Below are positions 28,601 to 64,000 of a DNA stretch of 64,000 bases, one piece after another. A program made the position numbers and the translations under genes. The first letter of the stretch is position 1, and every line of letters begins with the position of its first letter. The stretch comes from an uncultured Acidobacteriota bacterium (GTDB taxonomy: Bacteria > Acidobacteriota > Vicinamibacteria > Vicinamibacterales > CAVVIG01): positions 49,261-113,260 of the forward strand of contig CAVQJU010000014.1 of NCBI GenBank assembly GCA_963712905.1. The letters are read 5' to 3'. The notes below the pieces were generated by a model. The model searched no databases. It saw nothing but the letters and a program-made list of their open reading frames with translations, and was not told where the DNA came from.

Positions 28601-28675
28601 GCGGGAATAACTCAGTGGTAGAGTGCGACCTTGCCAAGGTCGAAGTCGCGGGTTCGAATCCCGTTTCCCGCTCCA
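28601..28675 (+). tRNA. tRNA-Gly (anticodon GCC), CCA encoded
   Basis: Cloverleaf folded by hand: acceptor GCGGGAA/TTCCCGC, anticodon stem CGACC/GGTCG with loop TTGCCAA, T arm GCGGG-TTCGAAT-CCCGT. Confidence 0.9.
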
Positions 28676-28824: not shown

Positions 28825-28898
28825 GGCGCCGTCGCCAAGAGGTAAGGCAGAGGTCTGCAAAACCTCCACCCCCGGTTCAAATCCGGGCGGCGCCTCCA
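28825..28898 (+). tRNA. tRNA-Cys (anticodon GCA), CCA encoded
   Basis: Acceptor GGCGCCG/CGGCGCC, anticodon stem GAGGT/ACCTC with loop CTGCAAA, T arm CCCGG-TTCAAAT-CCGGG. Confidence 0.9.
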
Positions 28899-56655: not shown

Positions 56656-56695
56656 GGCGGAAGCGAGCACGCGCTCGCTTCCGCCGTTTTCTTTT
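56656..56695 (+). terminator. rho-independent terminator
   Basis: Perfect 13-bp stem GGCGGAAGCGAGC-acgc-GCTCGCTTCCGCC followed by GTTTTCTTTT, 20 nt after the stop at 56635. Confidence 0.75.
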
Positions 56696-56760: not shown

Positions 56761-57702
56761 TCAGCGGTGCCAGACTGGCGAGAAGCGGACGAGCATCTCG
56801 TACGCCGCGCGCCGGTTCGTCTCGGCGTTCGGGTGGGCATCGAACGGGCTGACCCACATCGTGCGCGGGTCCTTCACCCTGGAGAACGCGGGCAGCAGGT
56901 CGAGGCACGGGATCTGCTCCTCGGCGCACAGCGCGGCAACGCGTTCGTGAAGAAACGCAAACGGGTAGCCCGACCCGTTCGGGCCCATTGCGTCGGTCGC
57001 GGGGAACAGCACGATGCCGCTCCGCACGCCGGTGCGGCGCGCACGGCGGACGAACTCGCGGAGAAGGCCGAAGGCCGTCCGGGAATTCGGTGAATTCGGA
57101 TCGCTCAGGTTGCGCGTGAGGTACCGCTCGTAGCTCTCGACGAGACCGAGCTCCTGCTGCAGCCGCGTCCATTGGATGCCGAGCAGATCGTAGAGCATCG
57201 ACGCGGGCTCGAGGCGGCGGTCGAGCGGCTCGGGCAGAAGGGGACGAGGGCGTGGACGTTCCATCTCCTCCGTCTCGAACGCCGTCAGGTACAGCTGCAG
57301 CAGGACGAAGTCCGGCGAAATAGACAGGGACTTTGCCAGCTGTTTCATGTGATCGTGTGCGCCGGGCTCCCCGAAGTTGAATACCTCGTAGCGGGCGCCA
57401 AGCAACTCGCCGAGCCGATCCGAAAACCGCTCGTGCGCGGCCAGGCCCTGGCCCCACGCGATCGAATCGCCCACCACCGCAATCCGGTAGCGCTCCTGCT
57501 GCTTGTCGGGAATCTCTCGATCACGGAACCCGAGACCATTGACCTGAATCTCCGGACCACGCGCGTGCCGGCCGATGAAGTCTCCCGCGTTGCCGCTCGA
57601 GGCCGCCGTGCGGTACGCCAGGCGCGCGATGTGCTCCGCGCCGACGACGGCGGCGGCGATCACGAGGGTCCGGAAAACGATCCGCAGCGCGTCAGTCGCC
57701 AT
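56761..57702 (-). CDS. membrane-anchored SGNH/GDSL hydrolase (DltD/AlgX-role candidate)
   Basis: N-terminal TM (IVFRTLVIAAAVVGA), block I VVGDSIAWGQG, block V FDAHPN. 11-nt overlap with the upstream gene. Confidence 0.8.
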   Translation of the reverse strand: MATDALRIVFRTLVIAAAVVGAEHIARLAYRTAASSGNAGDFIGRHARGPEIQVNGLGFRDREIPDKQQERYRIAVVGDSIAWGQGLAAHERFSDRLGELLGARYEVFNFGEPGAHDHMKQLAKSLSISPDFVLLQLYLTAFETEEMERPRPRPLLPEPLDRRLEPASMLYDLLGIQWTRLQQELGLVESYERYLTRNLSDPNSPNSRTAFGLLREFVRRARRTGVRSGIVLFPATDAMGPNGSGYPFAFLHERVAALCAEEQIPCLDLLPAFSRVKDPRTMWVSPFDAHPNAETNRRAAYEMLVRFSPVWHR

Positions 57703-58639
57703 GGGCCGCCACGCGTCCCGGCGGTTCGCTCAGCACTTTGATAGCTTCGGACAGGCAGATGAGCTCGTTGTCCTCTTCGCGCCGCATCTCGTAGCGGAAC
57801 CCGATCTTCGCCGTCTCCGTGTCGCGCCGGAACACACGCACGCGCGTGTGGATGCGGTCACTGGTGGACGCGTTCCCGAAGTACGCGATGCGCCGCTGCT
57901 GGATGACGCGCACTGTCCTCGGCCCGGCGGCGGACGCCGATGGCATCGCCTCCATGGTTTGACGCTCCGCGCGGTTCATGAACGCCACGTAGTTCGCGAA
58001 GTAGACGATGCCGGCGCCGTTGGTGTCGCGATCGATGTCGATGGCGTGGACCACATCCGGGCTCGCGTGATCGCGGTCTTCGGTCCAGCCGTCGAGCAGG
58101 CCGAGATCCAGCGTTTCCTTCGCCTGCCTCGTCATCTGGTACGGGTTCTCGTCGTTCGGCAGCAGGGCCAGACCTGAGAAATCGACGCCTGCCGGGCTCG
58201 CCACCTTCAGCCGGCTGTTTCCGCCCTCCGGGGTGATGAAGATCGTCGCCATCCGGACGTAGGGAAAGGTCATCCTGTCCGGAGTCGAGATCCGGGTGGG
58301 GGCCGTGGCCAGCCAGTCTTCGAGCCGCGCTACCCGATCGAAGACCGTTTCGCTTTCGACCGCGATGCCCTTGAAGCCTCTCAGGAAGACCGCGAATGCC
58401 AGCCTGTCGTCGAGCTGAAAGGTGTTCGGCAGCGCGTGGTCCGGGAATTGTTCTTCGATGTAGTAGAACGTGGCGTAGATCTCCTGCCCGCCCACCGTCC
58501 GCAGCGCGGACATGGGCGTGTTCACGGCTCGTGCGAGCGAGGACCAGTGGCAGTGCCCGACCTGCATCAGGAGGAGGTGCTCTGCGAGCCCCAGGTAATT
58601 CGTCTGGGCCATCCCCAGCACCAGGTCGTACCGGTCCAT
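57692..58639 (-). CDS. double hot-dog fold protein, LnmK-like acyltransferase/decarboxylase candidate
   Basis: Start ATG 58639 shares one nt with the ACP stop (TGATG). N-terminal half is VLGMAQTNYLGLAEHLLLMQVGHCHWSSLA...IYATFYYIE. The second half is 4HBT-like (NGAGIVYFANYVAFMNRAE). The family call is from memory of LnmK-family text. Confidence 0.55.
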   Translation of the reverse strand: MDRYDLVLGMAQTNYLGLAEHLLLMQVGHCHWSSLARAVNTPMSALRTVGGQEIYATFYYIEEQFPDHALPNTFQLDDRLAFAVFLRGFKGIAVESETVFDRVARLEDWLATAPTRISTPDRMTFPYVRMATIFITPEGGNSRLKVASPAGVDFSGLALLPNDENPYQMTRQAKETLDLGLLDGWTEDRDHASPDVVHAIDIDRDTNGAGIVYFANYVAFMNRAERQTMEAMPSASAAGPRTVRVIQQRRIAYFGNASTSDRIHTRVRVFRRDTETAKIGFRYEMRREEDNELICLSEAIKVLSEPPGRVAAHGD

Positions 58640-58902
58640 CAGAGGCCTCCGGACGTGCCTGAGATCGTCGCCACGAGACTCGCGACCTTGCGGACCGTGT
58701 CGAAGTCGCGAACTTCGAAGCGGTTCACGTCGATGTCGATGGCGAAGGCGTCCTCGAGAAAGGCGATCAGCTCGAGCACGCCGAACGAATCGACGATCCC
58801 GCTCGTGAACAGCGGCGTGTCGTCGTCGAACTGGCGTCCGCCCGACCTGGGCTTGAACTTCGTCTCGATGAACGTCCGGATTCGGTCGTCGGTTGCAGTC
58901 AT
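58639..58902 (-). CDS. acyl carrier protein (DltC-like carrier)
   Basis: 87 aa with phosphopantetheine site in LFTSGIVDSFGVLELIAFLE. Confidence 0.8.
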   Translation of the reverse strand: MTATDDRIRTFIETKFKPRSGGRQFDDDTPLFTSGIVDSFGVLELIAFLEDAFAIDIDVNRFEVRDFDTVRKVASLVATISGTSGGL

Positions 58903-58965: not shown

Positions 58966-60117
58966 CTACATGAACAGCATCAGCCGCAGGGTCCGGACGG
59001 CGTGCGGCACGTCCATCCGGAAAAACACCAATCCTATCGTAACCAGCGCGAAGGTGAGGGCGACGCCGCCAGCCGACGCCAGGCGCGAGCGATACAGGCG
59101 GCTCGTCGCCACGGAGTCGGGAAGCCACGCTTTGTAGAAATGGAACAACGTCACGAGCACGCCGTGATAGGCGCCCCACACGAGGAAGTTGATCGCCAGG
59201 CCATGCCACGCGCCGACCACGAGAAATGTCGCGAAGTAGCTCGCGGTCGCGATCACGCCCGGGCGACGCCGCAACGGAGTTGTGAACAGTTGGCGGCCAA
59301 CGGTGGAGAACACGTAGTCGCGAACCCAGGTGGACAAGCTCATGTGCCAGCGGTTCCAGAAATCCTGGATGTTCGTGCTCAGATAGGGCCAGTTGAAGTT
59401 CTCGGGTACGCGAATGCCCATCACGCGAGAGACGCCGATCGCGAAATCCGAATAGGCGCTGAAGTCCATGTAGAGGGCGAGCGAGTAGGCGGCCATCGCC
59501 TTCCACGCCAGCTCAGGCGTCGTCGCGGCATCGGCCGTCGCCGCCACGCCGTTCAGCAGGTCGGCAAGCACGACTTTCTTGAAGAGTCCCGCGAGAATGC
59601 GGAAGCAGCCGATGTAGACGTCTTTGGACGACCCGTTCGCCGAAGCGACCGAGGCGGTGAAGTCGGCGTACCGCTTGATAGGACCGGCGACGCGGCACGG
59701 GAAGAAGAAGACGAAGGCCGCCAGGTTCGCCAGGGAACGGTCCTTGATGCGGCCCCGGCTGCGCTCCACCATGTAGTGAATCAGCTCGAGGGCGAGATAC
59801 GAAAAGCCGAGCGGCACGAGCGGGCTGTCGCCAAGAGGCACGAGCGCGGCGCTGGCCGCCGTCAGGCCCCCAGGCCGCTTGAAGTAGGCGAGGAGGCCGA
59901 CGATCAGCGCGATGCCGGCCCACTTGGCGCGCTGGCCGACGCAGACATACGCCACGAGCACCAGGCCGGCGACCAGCCAGAGCGCCTGCGGTGCAAACAG
60001 CGCGTAGAACGCGACACCCCATACGGCGAGCGTGTGCGAGCGGAATCGTGCCGGCGCGATGGACAGCGTGATCCAGCACAAGGCCACCAGTACAACGAAT
60101 CGCGGTTCGATGAACAC
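58966..60117 (-). CDS. MBOAT-family membrane O-acyltransferase (DltB/AlgI-like)
   Basis: 383 aa, polytopic, with the signature FWNRWHMSLSTWVRDYVF carrying the catalytic His, and a later WHG. Confidence 0.9.
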   Translation of the reverse strand: MFIEPRFVVLVALCWITLSIAPARFRSHTLAVWGVAFYALFAPQALWLVAGLVLVAYVCVGQRAKWAGIALIVGLLAYFKRPGGLTAASAALVPLGDSPLVPLGFSYLALELIHYMVERSRGRIKDRSLANLAAFVFFFPCRVAGPIKRYADFTASVASANGSSKDVYIGCFRILAGLFKKVVLADLLNGVAATADAATTPELAWKAMAAYSLALYMDFSAYSDFAIGVSRVMGIRVPENFNWPYLSTNIQDFWNRWHMSLSTWVRDYVFSTVGRQLFTTPLRRRPGVIATASYFATFLVVGAWHGLAINFLVWGAYHGVLVTLFHFYKAWLPDSVATSRLYRSRLASAGGVALTFALVTIGLVFFRMDVPHAVRTLRLMLFM

Positions 60118-60135
60118 GTCAGGGGAGCGGGCTGC

Positions 60136-60294
60136 CTAGAACCGGGCGTAGACGAAGGGACCAACCCCTCGGCCTTCGAACGACACCAGCAGGAATGCGA
60201 GCAGGACCAGCACGACGGCGATCGCCGCCAGCGCGAAGTCCTTTTCGAGCCACAGGAAGGCGCGAACATCGCGCCAGGTCGGTCGCATAGCCAT
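60136..60294 (-). CDS. small membrane peptide with C-terminal FxYxxF motif (DltX-like acyl-shuttle candidate)
   Basis: Absent from the ORF track. Reads MAMRPTWRDVRAFLWLEKDFALAAIAVVLVLLAFLLVSFEGRGVGPFVYARF*. It has one TM, high third-position GC like neighbouring genes, and its stop lies 18 nt before the MBOAT start. Confidence 0.5.
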   Translation of the reverse strand: MAMRPTWRDVRAFLWLEKDFALAAIAVVLVLLAFLLVSFEGRGVGPFVYARF

Positions 60295-60343
60295 GTGCGA
60301 TTTCCGCTGCGATTCTATCGCACGTTTACCTGTTTTGACCCTG

Positions 60344-60379
60344 TACGAAACGTGCTTCGTGATCTTCGTGTCTTCGTGG
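60344..60379 (-). repeat. CACGAAG-heptad repeat, solo arm
   Basis: The minus strand reads ccacgaagacacgaagatcacgaagcacg directly after the stop at 60380..60382. No matching opposite arm is nearby. Confidence 0.75.
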
Positions 60380-61858
60380 TTAGGGTTGCGGAGGCTGGAC
60401 GCACCAGGACGCGACCTGCGGTCCGCCCGTGCACGGGATACGAGGGAGGTTGTAGGCGTGCGCGTCGTTCTCGTCCACGCGCCGCTGGTAGTCGGGAATC
60501 CTGACGAGGTCGACCGATGCCACGATCACCCGTTCGCGCGACAGGAAGTCGATTGCGTAGGCGTCCCAGTAGATGGCGCGGGCGTATCGGATCTGATGGC
60601 TCACGAGGTAGTCGGCGATCTCGCGGTGCTCGTTCGACGGCGGCTCGCTGATCGATGCCCGCAGCAATCTCACGTTGCCGGCGAGGTTGACGGCGCCCCA
60701 CAACGCGAACACGGCCGGCACGGCCGTGCGAAGCAGGCGCGACCGCTCACGCGACATGAAGGCGCCGAAACATCCGACAGGCAGCAACAGCCCCAGCAGG
60801 ATGTAGCGGAGCAGCGGCGGCTGCCCGGGGATGATGTTGCATGACAGCGGGTACGCGGCGGCGCTGAACGCGCCGACGAGGCCGAGGTAGACGAAGAAGG
60901 CCTCGCCGGCCCCCAGCCGCGGTTGTCGGTACCACGACCACGCGAGGCGCGCGATCATGCCGCCGAGCACGAGGGCCAGCACCCAGCCAACGGCCGCCGA
61001 ACCGTCAGTCACAGGAGTGTTCATCCGGAAGTCCAGCAGGCGCGTGAACGTGCCGCCGTACAGAACTGGCAGCGCCTGCGTGAACACGGTGGCCGCGCGC
61101 GGCACGAGCTCGGCCGGCGCGAAGCACATCTGGCCGGCGAGCGATGCCGCCTGCAGGCCGAGCGACGCACCGGCTTGATACAGCTTGATCGCGTCCACGG
61201 CGAGCCAGACGACGCCGAAGCCGACGCCCATAATCGCGGCGCGCCGGAGGTTGGCCGCGTCCCATTCGCCTCCGCCGGCGGCTTCGACCGCCAGAAGGGC
61301 CGGCACGGCGAAGACGGTGAACTCGCGGTGCAGGAACGCGACCGCGAGCACGGCGCCGAACGCGAACGGACGCTGGCGCAAGCGCCACAGCAGGAGGATG
61401 TAGATGAACGGCTCCACGCACGCCCCGGCCGTCTCGAGGAGCTGGCTCGCCGCGACCGGGGCCGGCATGATGAACGGCAGCGCGCCGGCGAGCGCGACCA
61501 GGGGCCGCACGCCGAGCCGGCGTCCGATCGCCGTCACGAGCCAGACGGCCGCGACGACGTTGAGGAGGACGAGCGGCACGCGCATGACGGCGACCGACGG
61601 CCTGGCAATCCAGAAAAACGGTGCGATGAGCCACGATTCGACGCCGAGGATGTAGTTGAGACCGTCGTAGAAGAGCGGGAAGCCCTCGAAGGCGCTGAGG
61701 CGCCGCGCCATCAGGCCGATGATGGCCTGGTCGGAATCGAAGTAGAACCCTTCGTAGACGGTCGGAACGACGCTGCGCAGCAGCACCAGGACGGCGGCGC
61801 CGGCGATCACCAGGAGTTGTTCCCGGCTCAGACCGTTTGTTCCGTGCGGGCCTTTCAA
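60380..61858 (-). CDS. GT-C-type polytopic membrane glycosyltransferase-like protein (ArnT/PMT-like) with C-terminal soluble domain
   Basis: Only the last ~492 codons of track ORF 60380..63523 read as protein. About 11 hydrophobic segments, first-loop acidic motif YFDSDQAI. TTG 61858 is in a TTGA overlap with the upstream stop; GTG 61810 is an alternative start. Confidence 0.6.
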   Translation of the reverse strand: MKGPHGTNGLSREQLLVIAGAAVLVLLRSVVPTVYEGFYFDSDQAIIGLMARRLSAFEGFPLFYDGLNYILGVESWLIAPFFWIARPSVAVMRVPLVLLNVVAAVWLVTAIGRRLGVRPLVALAGALPFIMPAPVAASQLLETAGACVEPFIYILLLWRLRQRPFAFGAVLAVAFLHREFTVFAVPALLAVEAAGGGEWDAANLRRAAIMGVGFGVVWLAVDAIKLYQAGASLGLQAASLAGQMCFAPAELVPRAATVFTQALPVLYGGTFTRLLDFRMNTPVTDGSAAVGWVLALVLGGMIARLAWSWYRQPRLGAGEAFFVYLGLVGAFSAAAYPLSCNIIPGQPPLLRYILLGLLLPVGCFGAFMSRERSRLLRTAVPAVFALWGAVNLAGNVRLLRASISEPPSNEHREIADYLVSHQIRYARAIYWDAYAIDFLSRERVIVASVDLVRIPDYQRRVDENDAHAYNLPRIPCTGGPQVASWCVQPPQP

Positions 61859-64000
61859 GGGCGCGTCTCGATCCAGCAGCCGAGGAAACGCGTGTCGGTG
61901 CTCCCGCGCTCGAACTCGGCCGGCGTGGCGCCGTGCGCGGCCGTCACGCGCACCTTCAGCGCTCGCGAACCAGGAAGGAACGGAAGCGTCGTCATCCGTT
62001 CTTCGCCGGGAGCGAGGACGAAGTATTGCCGCCACCCGTCGCCTTCGAGCGTCACGACGTTCGGCACCGGCGGGTTTCGCACCAGCAGGCGCACGGGTGC
62101 GGCGCCATCGGCGCTGATGACGAAATCGGCGGACCGTCCGCCTTCGATCCACGTGCCGCCGGGCTCCATGAATCCCTGGCCCTTCACGAGAAAGACGACA
62201 GCAGGACCGTATCGCGCGACATGCTCCGGAAAATTGGCCGCGAGTTGTTGATTCGAGCCGGCGATGCTGACGGGCCGGACAAGCAGACGGCCGGCCGCCG
62301 CCTTGATCGCCAGCGCACGCACGGGTACCGGGAGGCTGAATTCCCGGCGCCACGCGGCGGGCGAAGTGTCGAGTGGCGCGAGCGGCCCGATGGGAAACGT
62401 CCACTGCGGGCCGAACTCGCCGTCCACGGTGACGGTCAGCGGCGTTGGCCCTGTGGCCGCGGCGCCCGTGCCTTCGATGCTGTAGACGCCAGCCGGCAGG
62501 CGGAACAGCGTGATGGCTGGTTCGGGCGACGCAGGGTCGGCGCCTGCTTCGGCCAGCGTGAGGTTCGCCAGTACGTCGCGGGCGCGCACGCGGCGGATCG
62601 GACTGTACCGAATCGCGATCTGCCGGGCGTCGGGGTCGTACTGCCGGAGGAACGCCGCAGTGGCCGCCGCCGGCGTCATCGCAGATCGATTCTTCCACAC
62701 GATCGACAGCGCGATCGCTGAAGTGGCGATGGCGGCAAACCCCATCGAGAGGGCGACCAGGGTTCGCGCGGCGCCACGGCGTTCGGCGAACATCCCCGAG
62801 GCCGCCGTCAGCGCGATCGCCGCGATCCACACCAGGCCGTGCAGGAAGGCGGCACTCGGCGTTGTCTGAAAGACGCTCGGGAAACCGCTGGTGACGTTCA
62901 CGAGCGGGGACAGCCACGTGAGCAGGCGCGAGGATCCGTCTCGAAAGTTGTAGAGCAGGATGCCACGGTCGACGCCGGCGAGCGTGACGGTCGTCAGCAG
63001 GCTGACCGCGAGCGCGCCGAGGCCGAGGAGTCTGCCGGTTTGACCGCGGCGGGTCTGGAACCAGACGCCCGCCGGAATCGCCAGCGGCAGCAGGATCGGG
63101 ACGATGAAGCGCCCGGGCGAGCTGTTGCCGCCCCACCACATCTGATACGTGCTCACCACGAGACCATATGGCGTCACGAGCAGCAGAAGCGCCGCCGCCA
63201 GACGCGGCGATCGCCGCATGAGCACGACGAGTCCGGCGAGCGCGCACAGGAGCACCGGCGCCGCCGGAAGCACGCCGAACTGCTGATCGAAGAGCAATCC
63301 GACGATCCCGCGGCCGAGGCTGGCGAGATCGCTCTGCGTGGTGCCGCCGTACGGGCCCCGCGGATCGGGAGATCCGTAGATCGCGTAGAAAAACGCGAAC
63401 CAGCCGGCCGCGCTGAGCAGAGGCACCGACAGCAGCGCGGTCACGCGGCGAGGGGAGGCGAGGCGCACGCACAGCAGCAGGCCGAGCACGACGGCGGCCG
63501 CGGCGTAGCGTGTGTGCAGCCATGGCAGCAGGGCCAGAGCGGCGCCCGTCGCGACGATCCGCCTGGTCGACAGCGGCCGGTCATCGACCAGCGCCAGCAC
63601 GCCGACCATGACGAGCGCGGCGCCGGGCGCGTCCGGGTACACCACGAACGATTGGAAGAAGAACGGCGCGCTCAACGCCGCCGTCGCCCAGCCGAACCAG
63701 CTGGCCGCAGCGTCCGACGTGACACGCCACGTGGCCATCCACGTCAACGCCGTCGCGCACGCGCTGACGAGCGCGAGGAACGCCAGCACGCCGGGGTAGC
63801 CGAACAGGGCCAGCGCCGGGGCGACGAGGACGGACAGGCCCGGCGCGTGCACGGAGTAGATTTCGCCGTTCTGGCCGCGCCTGAGGTAGTCGGGTCTCAG
63901 GTCGCCCCCGTAGTACTCGCGATAGTCGCCGCGGCGGTGGTTGTTCTCGATTTGCAGGTCGTGATCCTTGAGGAGGCTCTGCGCGATGACGAGGTAGTGC
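61855..64000 (-). CDS. GT-C-type polytopic membrane glycosyltransferase-like protein with large C-terminal periplasmic domain (5' end outside window)
   Basis: The frame stays open upstream of track start 63852 to the window edge (HYLVIAQSLLKDHDLQIENN...GEIYSVHAPGLSVLVAP). That text resembles the first loop of ArnT/PMT_2-type enzymes, and many TM segments follow. Confidence 0.6.
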   Translation of the reverse strand, partial: HYLVIAQSLLKDHDLQIENNHRRGDYREYYGGDLRPDYLRRGQNGEIYSVHAPGLSVLVAPALALFGYPGVLAFLALVSACATALTWMATWRVTSDAAASWFGWATAALSAPFFFQSFVVYPDAPGAALVMVGVLALVDDRPLSTRRIVATGAALALLPWLHTRYAAAAVVLGLLLCVRLASPRRVTALLSVPLLSAAGWFAFFYAIYGSPDPRGPYGGTTQSDLASLGRGIVGLLFDQQFGVLPAAPVLLCALAGLVVLMRRSPRLAAALLLLVTPYGLVVSTYQMWWGGNSSPGRFIVPILLPLAIPAGVWFQTRRGQTGRLLGLGALAVSLLTTVTLAGVDRGILLYNFRDGSSRLLTWLSPLVNVTSGFPSVFQTTPSAAFLHGLVWIAAIALTAASGMFAERRGAARTLVALSMGFAAIATSAIALSIVWKNRSAMTPAAATAAFLRQYDPDARQIAIRYSPIRRVRARDVLANLTLAEAGADPASPEPAITLFRLPAGVYSIEGTGAAATGPTPLTVTVDGEFGPQWTFPIGPLAPLDTSPAAWRREFSLPVPVRALAIKAAAGRLLVRPVSIAGSNQQLAANFPEHVARYGPAVVFLVKGQGFMEPGGTWIEGGRSADFVISADGAAPVRLLVRNPPVPNVVTLEGDGWRQYFVLAPGEERMTTLPFLPGSRALKVRVTAAHGATPAEFERGSTDTRFLGCWIETRP

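Follow-up and report, generated by a model that had tools for sequence, protein, structure and literature searches.

A DUF5989 microprotein encoded beside a DltB-like MBOAT in an uncultured acidobacterium is a candidate acyl-shuttle subunit

We analysed a 64,000-nucleotide stretch of DNA from an uncultured Acidobacteriota bacterium of the order Vicinamibacterales (assembly GCA_963712905.1, contig CAVQJU010000014.1, positions 49,261 to 113,260; hereafter the window) and focused on a 52-codon open reading frame (ORF) at 60136..60294 of its minus strand, which encodes a membrane microprotein that is a divergent member of the DUF5989 family and lies directly upstream of a gene for an MBOAT-family acyltransferase. 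The ORF begins with ATG and stops with TAG at 60138-60136, and translation of the minus strand from 60294 to 60136 yielded exactly the peptide given, with no strand named, in an earlier note on this DNA, MAMRPTWRDVRAFLWLEKDFALAAIAVVLVLLAFLLVSFEGRGVGPFVYARF-stop. The product has a charged N terminus (residues 1-20), one hydrophobic helix (approximately A21-F39) and the tail EGRGVGPFVYARF-COOH. It terminates in F47-V-Y49-A-R-F52-stop, which places an FxYxxF hexapeptide at the free C-terminal end. The note had also correctly placed the TAG stop 18 nucleotides before the GTG start of the MBOAT gene and described the third codon positions as G/C-rich: GC at codon positions 1, 2 and 3 is 0.70, 0.42 and 0.81, as would be expected for a coding frame in the window, whose GC content is 67%. 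Its figure of 178 nucleotides for the gap upstream of the MBOAT gene was wrong, as 262 nucleotides separate the MBOAT start from the preceding ORF on that strand, which stops at 60380. The overlapping out-of-frame ORF of 121 residues at 59904..60269 is present and Arg/Ser/Cys-rich, as had been described, and is noise typical of 67% GC sequence.

The microprotein gene opens a set of five genes, followed by those for a short DltB-like MBOAT, an acyl carrier protein (ACP), an LnmK-type enzyme and an SGNH/GDSL protein. All five, together with two membrane protein genes further upstream, are on the minus strand, and the reading frames of the cassette overlap or nearly abut. The MBOAT (58966..60117; GTG start; 383 residues) matched Pfam MBOAT with E=3e-28 and has its catalytic His258 in the sequence FWNRWHMSLS. 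Its best NCBIfam model was that of DltB, TIGR04091, at 220.7 bits, which is under the equivalog cut-off of 375, with residues 98-366 matching profile positions 106-376 of 380. It also aligned with DltB in the PDB (8jem and 6bug; E about 1e-33), including the catalytic-histidine block. The protein ends in ...RLMLFM, without a fused FxYxxF motif and without the two extra C-terminal helices of PatA/AlgI-type MBOATs. A search with an N-terminal fragment of the MBOAT returned 14 matches, most of them shorter than the 383-residue query.

The stand-alone ACP (58639..58902; 87 residues), an analogue of DltC, carries its phosphopantetheine serine in VDS39FG and exceeded the Pfam PP-binding cut-off (26.2 bits versus 20.8). 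Its best NCBIfam matches, ACP_for_OlsHI and DltC, were both under their cut-offs, and an ornithine-lipid reading by way of ACP_for_OlsHI, which belongs to a planctomycete pathway, was judged irrelevant. The ATG of the next gene (57692..58639) overlaps the ACP stop by 1 nucleotide (TGATG), and the two genes are translationally coupled. Its 315-residue product, which starts MDRYDL, belongs to the LnmK family of double hot-dog acyltransferase/decarboxylases (NCBIfam TIGR04098 LnmK_bifunc, 143.7 bits versus a cut-off of 100; Pfam LnmK_N_HDF, 31.3 versus 26.5 bits) and is the proposed loader of the ACP. The start of the SGNH/GDSL gene (56761..57702; 313 residues) overlaps the end of the LnmK-like gene by 11 nucleotides. 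The encoded protein has a hydrophobic segment at its N terminus and the motifs GDS (residue 78) and DAHPN (residue 288), and it matched Pfam Lipase_GDSL_2 (E=1.4e-11; 45.7 bits versus a cut-off of 32.9). It did not match the Pfam DltD model, and the DltC and DltD equivalog models were not reached by any protein of the operon. We propose that this protein, the DltD analogue of the cassette, is a DltD/PatB-like terminal transferase. With a phosphopantetheine-serine carrier and an SGNH-fold partner in one operon, the cassette has the composition of the carrier-protein-dependent MBOAT/SGNH class. The unit is closed by a hairpin at 56656-56685 after the SGNH gene and by a convergent gene.

The microprotein ORF is a real gene under purifying selection, as judged from its Pfam match, its homologues, its pattern of substitution and the rarity of its terminal motif among chance ORFs. 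The whole protein exceeded the gathering threshold of Pfam DUF5989 (PF19451; 31.9 bits versus 27; E=1.4e-7), with residues 7-50 matching profile positions 4-47 of 49, and it has the traits of that family, namely about 50 residues, one transmembrane helix and a C-terminal P-F-x-Y-x-x-F. Fourteen homologues, called independently in other assemblies and 73-96% identical, all end in GVGPFVYARF. Across these homologues the C-terminal half is unchanged and G43-F52 is invariant. For the window and three comparison loci (L010, L012 and L001; we number all such loci in this way), the ratio of non-synonymous to synonymous differences (pN/pS) was 0.09-0.23 in frame in five of six pairs and 0.6-6 in the other two frames; the sixth pair has only nine differences. 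An exhaustive HMMER profile search of 1.84 billion representative proteins gave 18 matches at E<=1e-3. The motif PF[IV]Y..F was found in all 17 divergent matches, at the very C terminus in 15 and followed by extra residues in 2. When the microprotein was aligned with 13 divergent members (33-92% identity), the only invariant columns were P46, F47, Y49 and F52. Such an ending is rare: among approximately 8,750 small ORFs in the first 89 loci, 18 have F.Y..F at the C terminus or followed by no more than three residues. Fourteen of these are microproteins of interest, nine from loci fetched by DUF5989 and five beside MBOATs that lack a fused motif (unfused MBOATs), and the remaining four, about 0.05% of small ORFs, are unrelated chance ORFs.

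Conservation of the ORF and its ending in syntenic loci, the check that the earlier note had put forward, was borne out: the microprotein and its terminal hexapeptide are kept in L001, L010, L012, L090, L092 and L094. The closest genome match, L010, is a metagenome-assembled genome (MAG) of an uncultured Acidobacteriota bacterium in which the MBOAT is 89% identical. L010 and L012 have the same cassette order and the same upstream membrane protein as the window. L001 likewise has the order microprotein, MBOAT, ACP, LnmK-like and SGNH, with different genes upstream. All five genes also occur in L003, rearranged to ACP, LnmK-like, SGNH, MBOAT and microprotein. There the microprotein is 51% identical to that of the window, and the MBOAT, 61% identical, likewise lacks a terminal motif. 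The persistence of the five-gene set through rearrangement and change of neighbourhood argues for a functional unit. In two metagenome assemblies, at L001:10204-11277 and L012:6345-7457, the MBOAT ORF is interrupted or joined to that of the ACP, through either assembly-error frameshifts or pseudogene formation, and the microprotein ORF is intact in both.

We then compared MBOATs with and without a fused motif in named genomes. A scan with an MBOAT alignment, using one genome per species, produced 80 loci, and the MBOAT gene was recognisable in 78. Seventy-one of these MBOATs (459-550 residues) end in a fused [F/Y]xYxxF motif, such as PFLYFRF, EFLYFQF or PFIYFRF, and none of the 71 loci has a transmembrane small ORF ending in F.Y..F within 6 kb. 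By contrast, all seven unfused MBOATs have an adjoining small ORF that combines a transmembrane helix with FxYxxF (Fisher exact p = 3.8e-10). Six of the seven unfused MBOATs could be read whole and have 384-422 residues; that of L012 is split. Two of the split loci, L010 and L012, are from Acidobacteriota. The others come from Nitrospira (L011; microprotein ending ...STFIYRGF), Planctomycetia (L013; ...STFLYRGF), Phycisphaerales (L022; ...RFFQYEGF), Candidatus Parabeggiatoa (L041; ...RIFLYQAF) and an unclassified MAG (L089), whose candidate microprotein is less certain because it overlaps a long ORF. The strict complementarity of the fused and split forms indicates that the motif supplies a part that the MBOAT cannot do without. 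At L041:1988-9054, from the gammaproteobacterial Candidatus Parabeggiatoa sp. HSG14, a weakly DUF1574-like gene, a 43-residue microprotein, a 405-residue motif-less MBOAT and an FGE-sulfatase-domain protein are encoded together with an AMP-binding enzyme, an ACP and a pyridoxal-phosphate-dependent enzyme. The AMP-binding enzyme and ACP encoded with the microprotein make this locus a truer Dlt look-alike, with the appearance of a Dlt-like system for aminoacylation in a Gram-negative host.

Cassettes of this kind were also found in metagenomes, where a scan with an LnmK-like alignment returned 80 loci. The ACP gene abuts the LnmK-like gene in nearly all of the 80, and an MBOAT is present wherever the contig is long enough. 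The MBOAT is complete in 32 loci, some of which are near-duplicates, and 25 of the 32 contain a transmembrane microprotein ending in FxYxxF. These microproteins fall into four sequence types. Type A, that of the window, ends in GPFVYARF or APFVYAGF and is encoded upstream of the MBOAT; the window ORF matches DUF5989, and the L094 member matches the window ORF by phmmer. The three other types matched neither DUF5989 nor DltX, nor any other family, in Pfam. Type B (36-40 residues; consensus MKxxLxDxLVGLALALLVVxLxLFASFDSTFIYRGF, ending in SF[DN]STFIYRGF) accompanies short MBOATs in LnmK-ACP cassettes. Its gene lies just after or overlapping the MBOAT stop in L011:7155-7265, L013:7146-7268, L096, L099, L102, L108, L111, L114, L121, L124, L125 and L140, and approximately 1.5 kb downstream of the MBOAT in L119:5053-5325 and L120:10324-10593. 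On these GC-rich contigs, type B ORFs are hidden inside longer spurious ORFs. Type C (RFIYENF or PFIYESF), whose ending closely resembles the FIYNEF of DltX, is encoded 1-2.5 kb downstream of the LnmK-like gene. Type D ([PQ][ASTV]FIYQGF, for example PSFIYQGF, PAFIYQGF and QVFIYQGF) overlaps the 3' end of that gene. Types C and D were found at L129:5412-5615, L130:3291-4325, L138:6970-7293, L141:4448-4894, L158-L160, L164 and L166-L168. In 2 of the 32 loci, L136:5566-6786 and L139:3672-4892, the MBOAT (406 residues) has one extra C-terminal helix and ends in ...SSSPFIYR-stop, which looks like a fused, truncated shuttle motif, F-I-Y-R with the last two residues missing.

Upstream of the microprotein gene, outside the conserved cassette, lie two genes for polytopic membrane proteins. 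The nearer one (60380..61858; 492 residues) has a probable TTG start and a 4-nucleotide TTGA overlap with the stop of the gene upstream. Its product is a candidate glycopolymer-formation protein, having a weak NCBIfam match to AZOBR_p60025, 'cell surface glycopolymer formation protein' (E=7e-4, far under the cut-off). This gene is syntenic in L010 and L012 and absent from L001. The farther one (61855..63852; 665 residues) encodes a putative GT-C-type glycosyltransferase, which matched the NCBIfam putative glycosyltransferase LA_3751/LA_3752 (E=1e-9, under the cut-off) and had no Pfam match. In the 85-nucleotide spacer before the microprotein gene (60295..60379, minus strand), a conserved, -10-like GCGATAGAATC box precedes the ATG by approximately 18 nucleotides, with three CACGAAG heptamers upstream of the box. 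This box does not vary between the window, L010 (5800-5823), L012 (5760-5823) and L090 (900-975). Arrays of CACGAAG/CTTCGTG precede it in L012 and L090, and there are none in L010. The box and heptamers may be a promoter and operator for the cassette. A scan of the locus for a consensus sigma-70 promoter found none, and Rfam had no match there; the only Rfam or ARAGORN matches in the window were tRNA-Gly(GCC) at 28601-28675 and tRNA-Cys(GCA) at 28825-28898, both on the plus strand.

By analogy with known acyl-transfer machines, we think it probable that the microprotein is the 'acyl shuttle', as a separate subunit, of an MBOAT/SGNH acylation machine that depends on a carrier protein and in which Tyr49 would most likely carry the acyl group from the DltB-like MBOAT to the SGNH transferase. 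We modelled the steps on DltBCDX and PatAB. The LnmK-type enzyme would load the stand-alone ACP in the cytoplasm, conceivably, if LnmK is a guide, with propionyl from methylmalonyl-CoA or acetyl from malonyl-CoA, an assignment in which we have little confidence. The MBOAT would dock the acyl-ACP, and His258 would move the acyl group via the membrane funnel to the Tyr49 hydroxyl, which lies in the proposed extracytoplasmic tail, P-F-V-Y-A-R-F-COOH. The tail would then swing to the SGNH protein, whose Ser78 would take the acyl group and pass it to an envelope glycopolymer, possibly the product of the two large upstream membrane proteins. The link to these two proteins is weak because L001 lacks them. 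An orientation with the N terminus inside and the C terminus outside is predicted from the distribution of charges under the positive-inside rule.

Several observations weigh against this proposal. The DUF5989 score of the microprotein is marginal, at 31.9 bits compared with 84.2 for a core member, and the charge pattern, which is clear in core DUF5989 proteins (RKKFW before the helix and a neutral tail), is weak in the subfamily of the window. The SGNH protein has D-A-H in place of the usual D-x-x-H spacing. The microprotein did not match the DltX hidden Markov model PF12459 at E<=0.1 in Pfam, and there was no NCBIfam match at E<=1. When DUF5989 was compared with real DltX proteins by hhalign, only the last 16 residues aligned (VSFEGRGVGPFVYARF of DUF5989 with YGYSGHGQGGFIYNEF of DltX; P = 0.0025, probability 12%). 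Common descent with DltX is therefore not established, and the likeness rests on architecture, motif and context. Similarly, hhalign of type B ('STFIYRGF') against DUF5989 or DltX aligned the motif alone, and homology and convergence are not separable in peptides so short. Neither the microprotein nor the family profile retrieved a DltX-like chain when searched against PDB sequences. In some loci DUF5989 genes are orphans or accompany carbamoyltransferases, with no MBOAT nearby, indicating that the family is not tied to MBOATs. Finally, in 5 of the 32 metagenome loci with a complete MBOAT (L126, L128, L132, L148 and L149), all from one subclade, the MBOAT is motif-less and the contig encodes no detectable FxYxxF microprotein. 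These loci have the composition LnmK-ACP-SGNH-MBOAT, their MBOATs end in ...HMWALMFG[IL]A[RH], and in L128 and L132 the stretch free of a microprotein includes approximately 4 kb downstream. Either the microprotein gene is unlinked in these genomes or the clade works differently.

The exceptional subclade bears on an alternative that we regard as unlikely, in which the microprotein is real and binds the MBOAT or SGNH protein in a structural, assembly or regulatory capacity, its tail being a docking peptide and the acyl group going from the MBOAT to the SGNH protein or the polymer with no acyl-tyrosine forming on the microprotein. Five related loci seem to work without a nearby microprotein, DltX itself has scaffolding contacts with DltB and DltD (PMC12148441), and what supports a shuttle is conservation and gene context. 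However, the invariant residues occupy the exact shuttle positions F-x-Y-x-x-F, as in DltX and PatA, in which the tyrosine is acylated, and a docking peptide sits poorly with fused and split forms that are strictly complementary.

A second alternative arises from the wider DUF5989 family. The core members are found in a module of SGNH/GDSL, SxtJ membrane protein, DUF5989 and carbamoyltransferase genes, in which the DUF5989 protein ends in APFIYTLF-stop (84 bits). We observed this module at L174:4030-7994 and L175:3996-7979, with Ensifer canadensis pT173d and Methylosinus pMSC49c among the carriers, at L176:2803-6990 (Sinorhizobium meliloti 1021 pSymB, about 482.2-486.4 kb) and on the metagenome contigs L009 and L170. 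Saxitoxin clusters have the same composition, sxtI (carbamoyltransferase), sxtJ (405 bp), sxtK (165 bp, of unknown function) and sxtL (GDSL-lipase homologue) (PMC2679770), and from gene size and order SxtK is probably a DUF5989 protein. The core proteins share with the microprotein a transmembrane helix and the invariant P-F-x-Y-x-x-F-COOH, but their modules lack an MBOAT and an ACP, both of which are present in the cassette. On this basis, the ORF of the window might serve a carbamoyltransferase/SxtJ system encoded at another place in the genome, as a partner of the SxtK/DUF5989 type, and its proximity to the MBOAT gene would then be meaningless. We consider this very unlikely, because the window subfamily adjoins the MBOAT cassette wherever the locus extends far enough to tell (the window, L001, L003, L010, L012, L090, L092 and L094), because the adjacency survives changes of gene order, and because Pfam and NCBIfam scans of the operon's genes detected no carbamoyltransferase or SxtJ among them. 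That core DUF5989 genes adjoin SGNH/GDSL genes elsewhere fits a donor role towards SGNH transferases. More tentatively, and as something possible rather than probable, DUF5989 might be a general family of tyrosine 'group shuttles' feeding SGNH/GDSL transferases, in MBOAT/ACP cassettes and in the widespread four-gene module alike, with carbamoyl carried across the membrane on the tyrosine where SxtJ replaces the MBOAT and with SxtL-type GDSL proteins acting as carbamoyl transferases, not decarbamoylases. Orphan DUF5989 genes were seen at L172:7727-7927 and L007:648-869, between FtsX/MacB-type genes and parAB or beside rpiA, with no MBOAT, SGNH or carbamoyltransferase gene within 8 kb. The gene downstream of the DUF5989 ORF in L002 does not encode an MBOAT N terminus.

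The remaining explanation is that the ORF is open by chance in GC-rich intergenic DNA, or that it is a regulatory upstream ORF for which the sequence of the peptide is irrelevant. This explanation could appeal to the shortness of the ORF, to the lack of a strong Shine-Dalgarno sequence and of a consensus sigma-70 promoter, and to the abundance of spurious ORFs in high-GC DNA, but we rejected both forms of it as scarcely credible, since the conservation data effectively refute them: the Pfam threshold is exceeded, the synonymous bias of substitutions is confined to the frame of the microprotein, the C-terminal half is invariant at 73-96% identity with the motif retained at 33-51%, and chance gives such a terminal motif to only about 0.05% of small ORFs.

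The acyl-tyrosine shuttle accounts for the transfer of acyl groups from the bacterial cytoplasm to envelope polymers, and envelope acylation affects resistance to antibiotics and antimicrobial peptides, immune evasion and biofilms. If the proposed role of the microprotein as an acyl shuttle is true, the mechanism of DltX in Gram-positive bacteria would extend to Acidobacteriota and to an uncharacterised cassette for envelope acylation. Such a role would also give a Pfam domain of unknown function, DUF5989, a testable function and hint at what the long-unexplained genes sxtJ and sxtK do. Split, carrier-dependent MBOAT systems with putative shuttle microproteins of their own are common in soil Acidobacteriota, Nitrospira, Planctomycetota and others, and since the further microprotein types are unrecognised by Pfam, gene callers may miss them. 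Our full-text literature searches returned no paper on LnmK and MBOAT together, no mention of DUF5989 and no match for DltB, ACP, Gram-negative and microprotein; a prior mention in a 2023 Nature Microbiology paper is possible. A 2025 paper in the Journal of Biological Chemistry described non-Dlt MBOAT/SGNH pathways as having neither a carrier protein nor a DltX-like microprotein (PMC12148441). Contrary to that account, the window and roughly 100 relatives show that the combination of a candidate shuttle microprotein and a carrier protein is not confined to Dlt.

The closest known counterpart is DltX, and the motif that the earlier note had given for it proved to be correct. FXYXXF is the 'acyl shuttle' of the DltX tail, and work from the Walker and Clarke groups has established that its invariant tyrosine, the transient D-alanyl acceptor, is D-alanylated by DltB and deacylated by DltD, with DltX also making scaffolding contacts with both proteins (PMC12148441). 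Real DltX proteins that we fetched end in GQGxFIYNEF. The proposed likeness to DltX held for motif, architecture and gene context and failed for membership of the DltX sequence family (no PF12459 match). Both are single-pass microproteins (40-44 residues in the fetched DltX proteins and 52 here) with the free C terminus G-x-G-x-G/P-F-[IV]-Y-x-x-F (EGRGVGPFVYARF in the microprotein and SGHGQGGFIYNEF in DltX). Both are also encoded with a DltB-type MBOAT that lacks a motif of its own, consistent with the distribution of 7 of 7 unfused against 0 of 71 fused loci, and both are accompanied by a small carrier protein and a partner of the SGNH fold. The analogy appears to hold functionally, because motif-bearing microproteins accompany motif-less MBOATs, the FxYxxF tail is conserved and the partner MBOAT is DltB-like, and the DltX interpretation is thus supported at the level of comparative genomics. 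The two systems differ in that the microprotein has a longer N-terminal cytoplasmic segment and that it comes from the MAG of a diderm acidobacterium, in which teichoic acid synthesis is not expected. Moreover, the operon has no DltA-type AMP-binding adenylation enzyme; an LnmK-type hot-dog enzyme holds the loader position, and the acyl group is therefore probably not D-alanine.

In PatA, AlgI and other bacterial MBOATs the F-x-Y-x-x-F motif likewise stands at the extreme C terminus after a transmembrane helix, and the acyl group is handed to an SGNH partner; the hexapeptide of PatA is auto-acetylated and donates to PatB, and acyl-CoA is the donor, without a carrier protein (PMC12148441). In those proteins the MBOAT chain itself carries the motif, on two additional helices, whereas the window encodes it in a gene of its own and also has a carrier protein. 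The loader resembles an enzyme from another setting. In leinamycin biosynthesis, LnmK is a bifunctional acyltransferase/decarboxylase that works with LnmL, producing propionyl-ACP from methylmalonyl-CoA. The 315-residue protein likewise passes the LnmK_bifunc threshold and is coupled to a stand-alone ACP, but LnmK serves polyketide beta-alkylation, whereas here the partners are an MBOAT, an SGNH protein and a microprotein, with no polyketide synthase. An LnmK-type loader points to an acyl group that is probably different. What appears to be new here, as far as sequence comparison can tell, is the DltX principle at work in another sequence family and in other phyla, with a loader of another kind.

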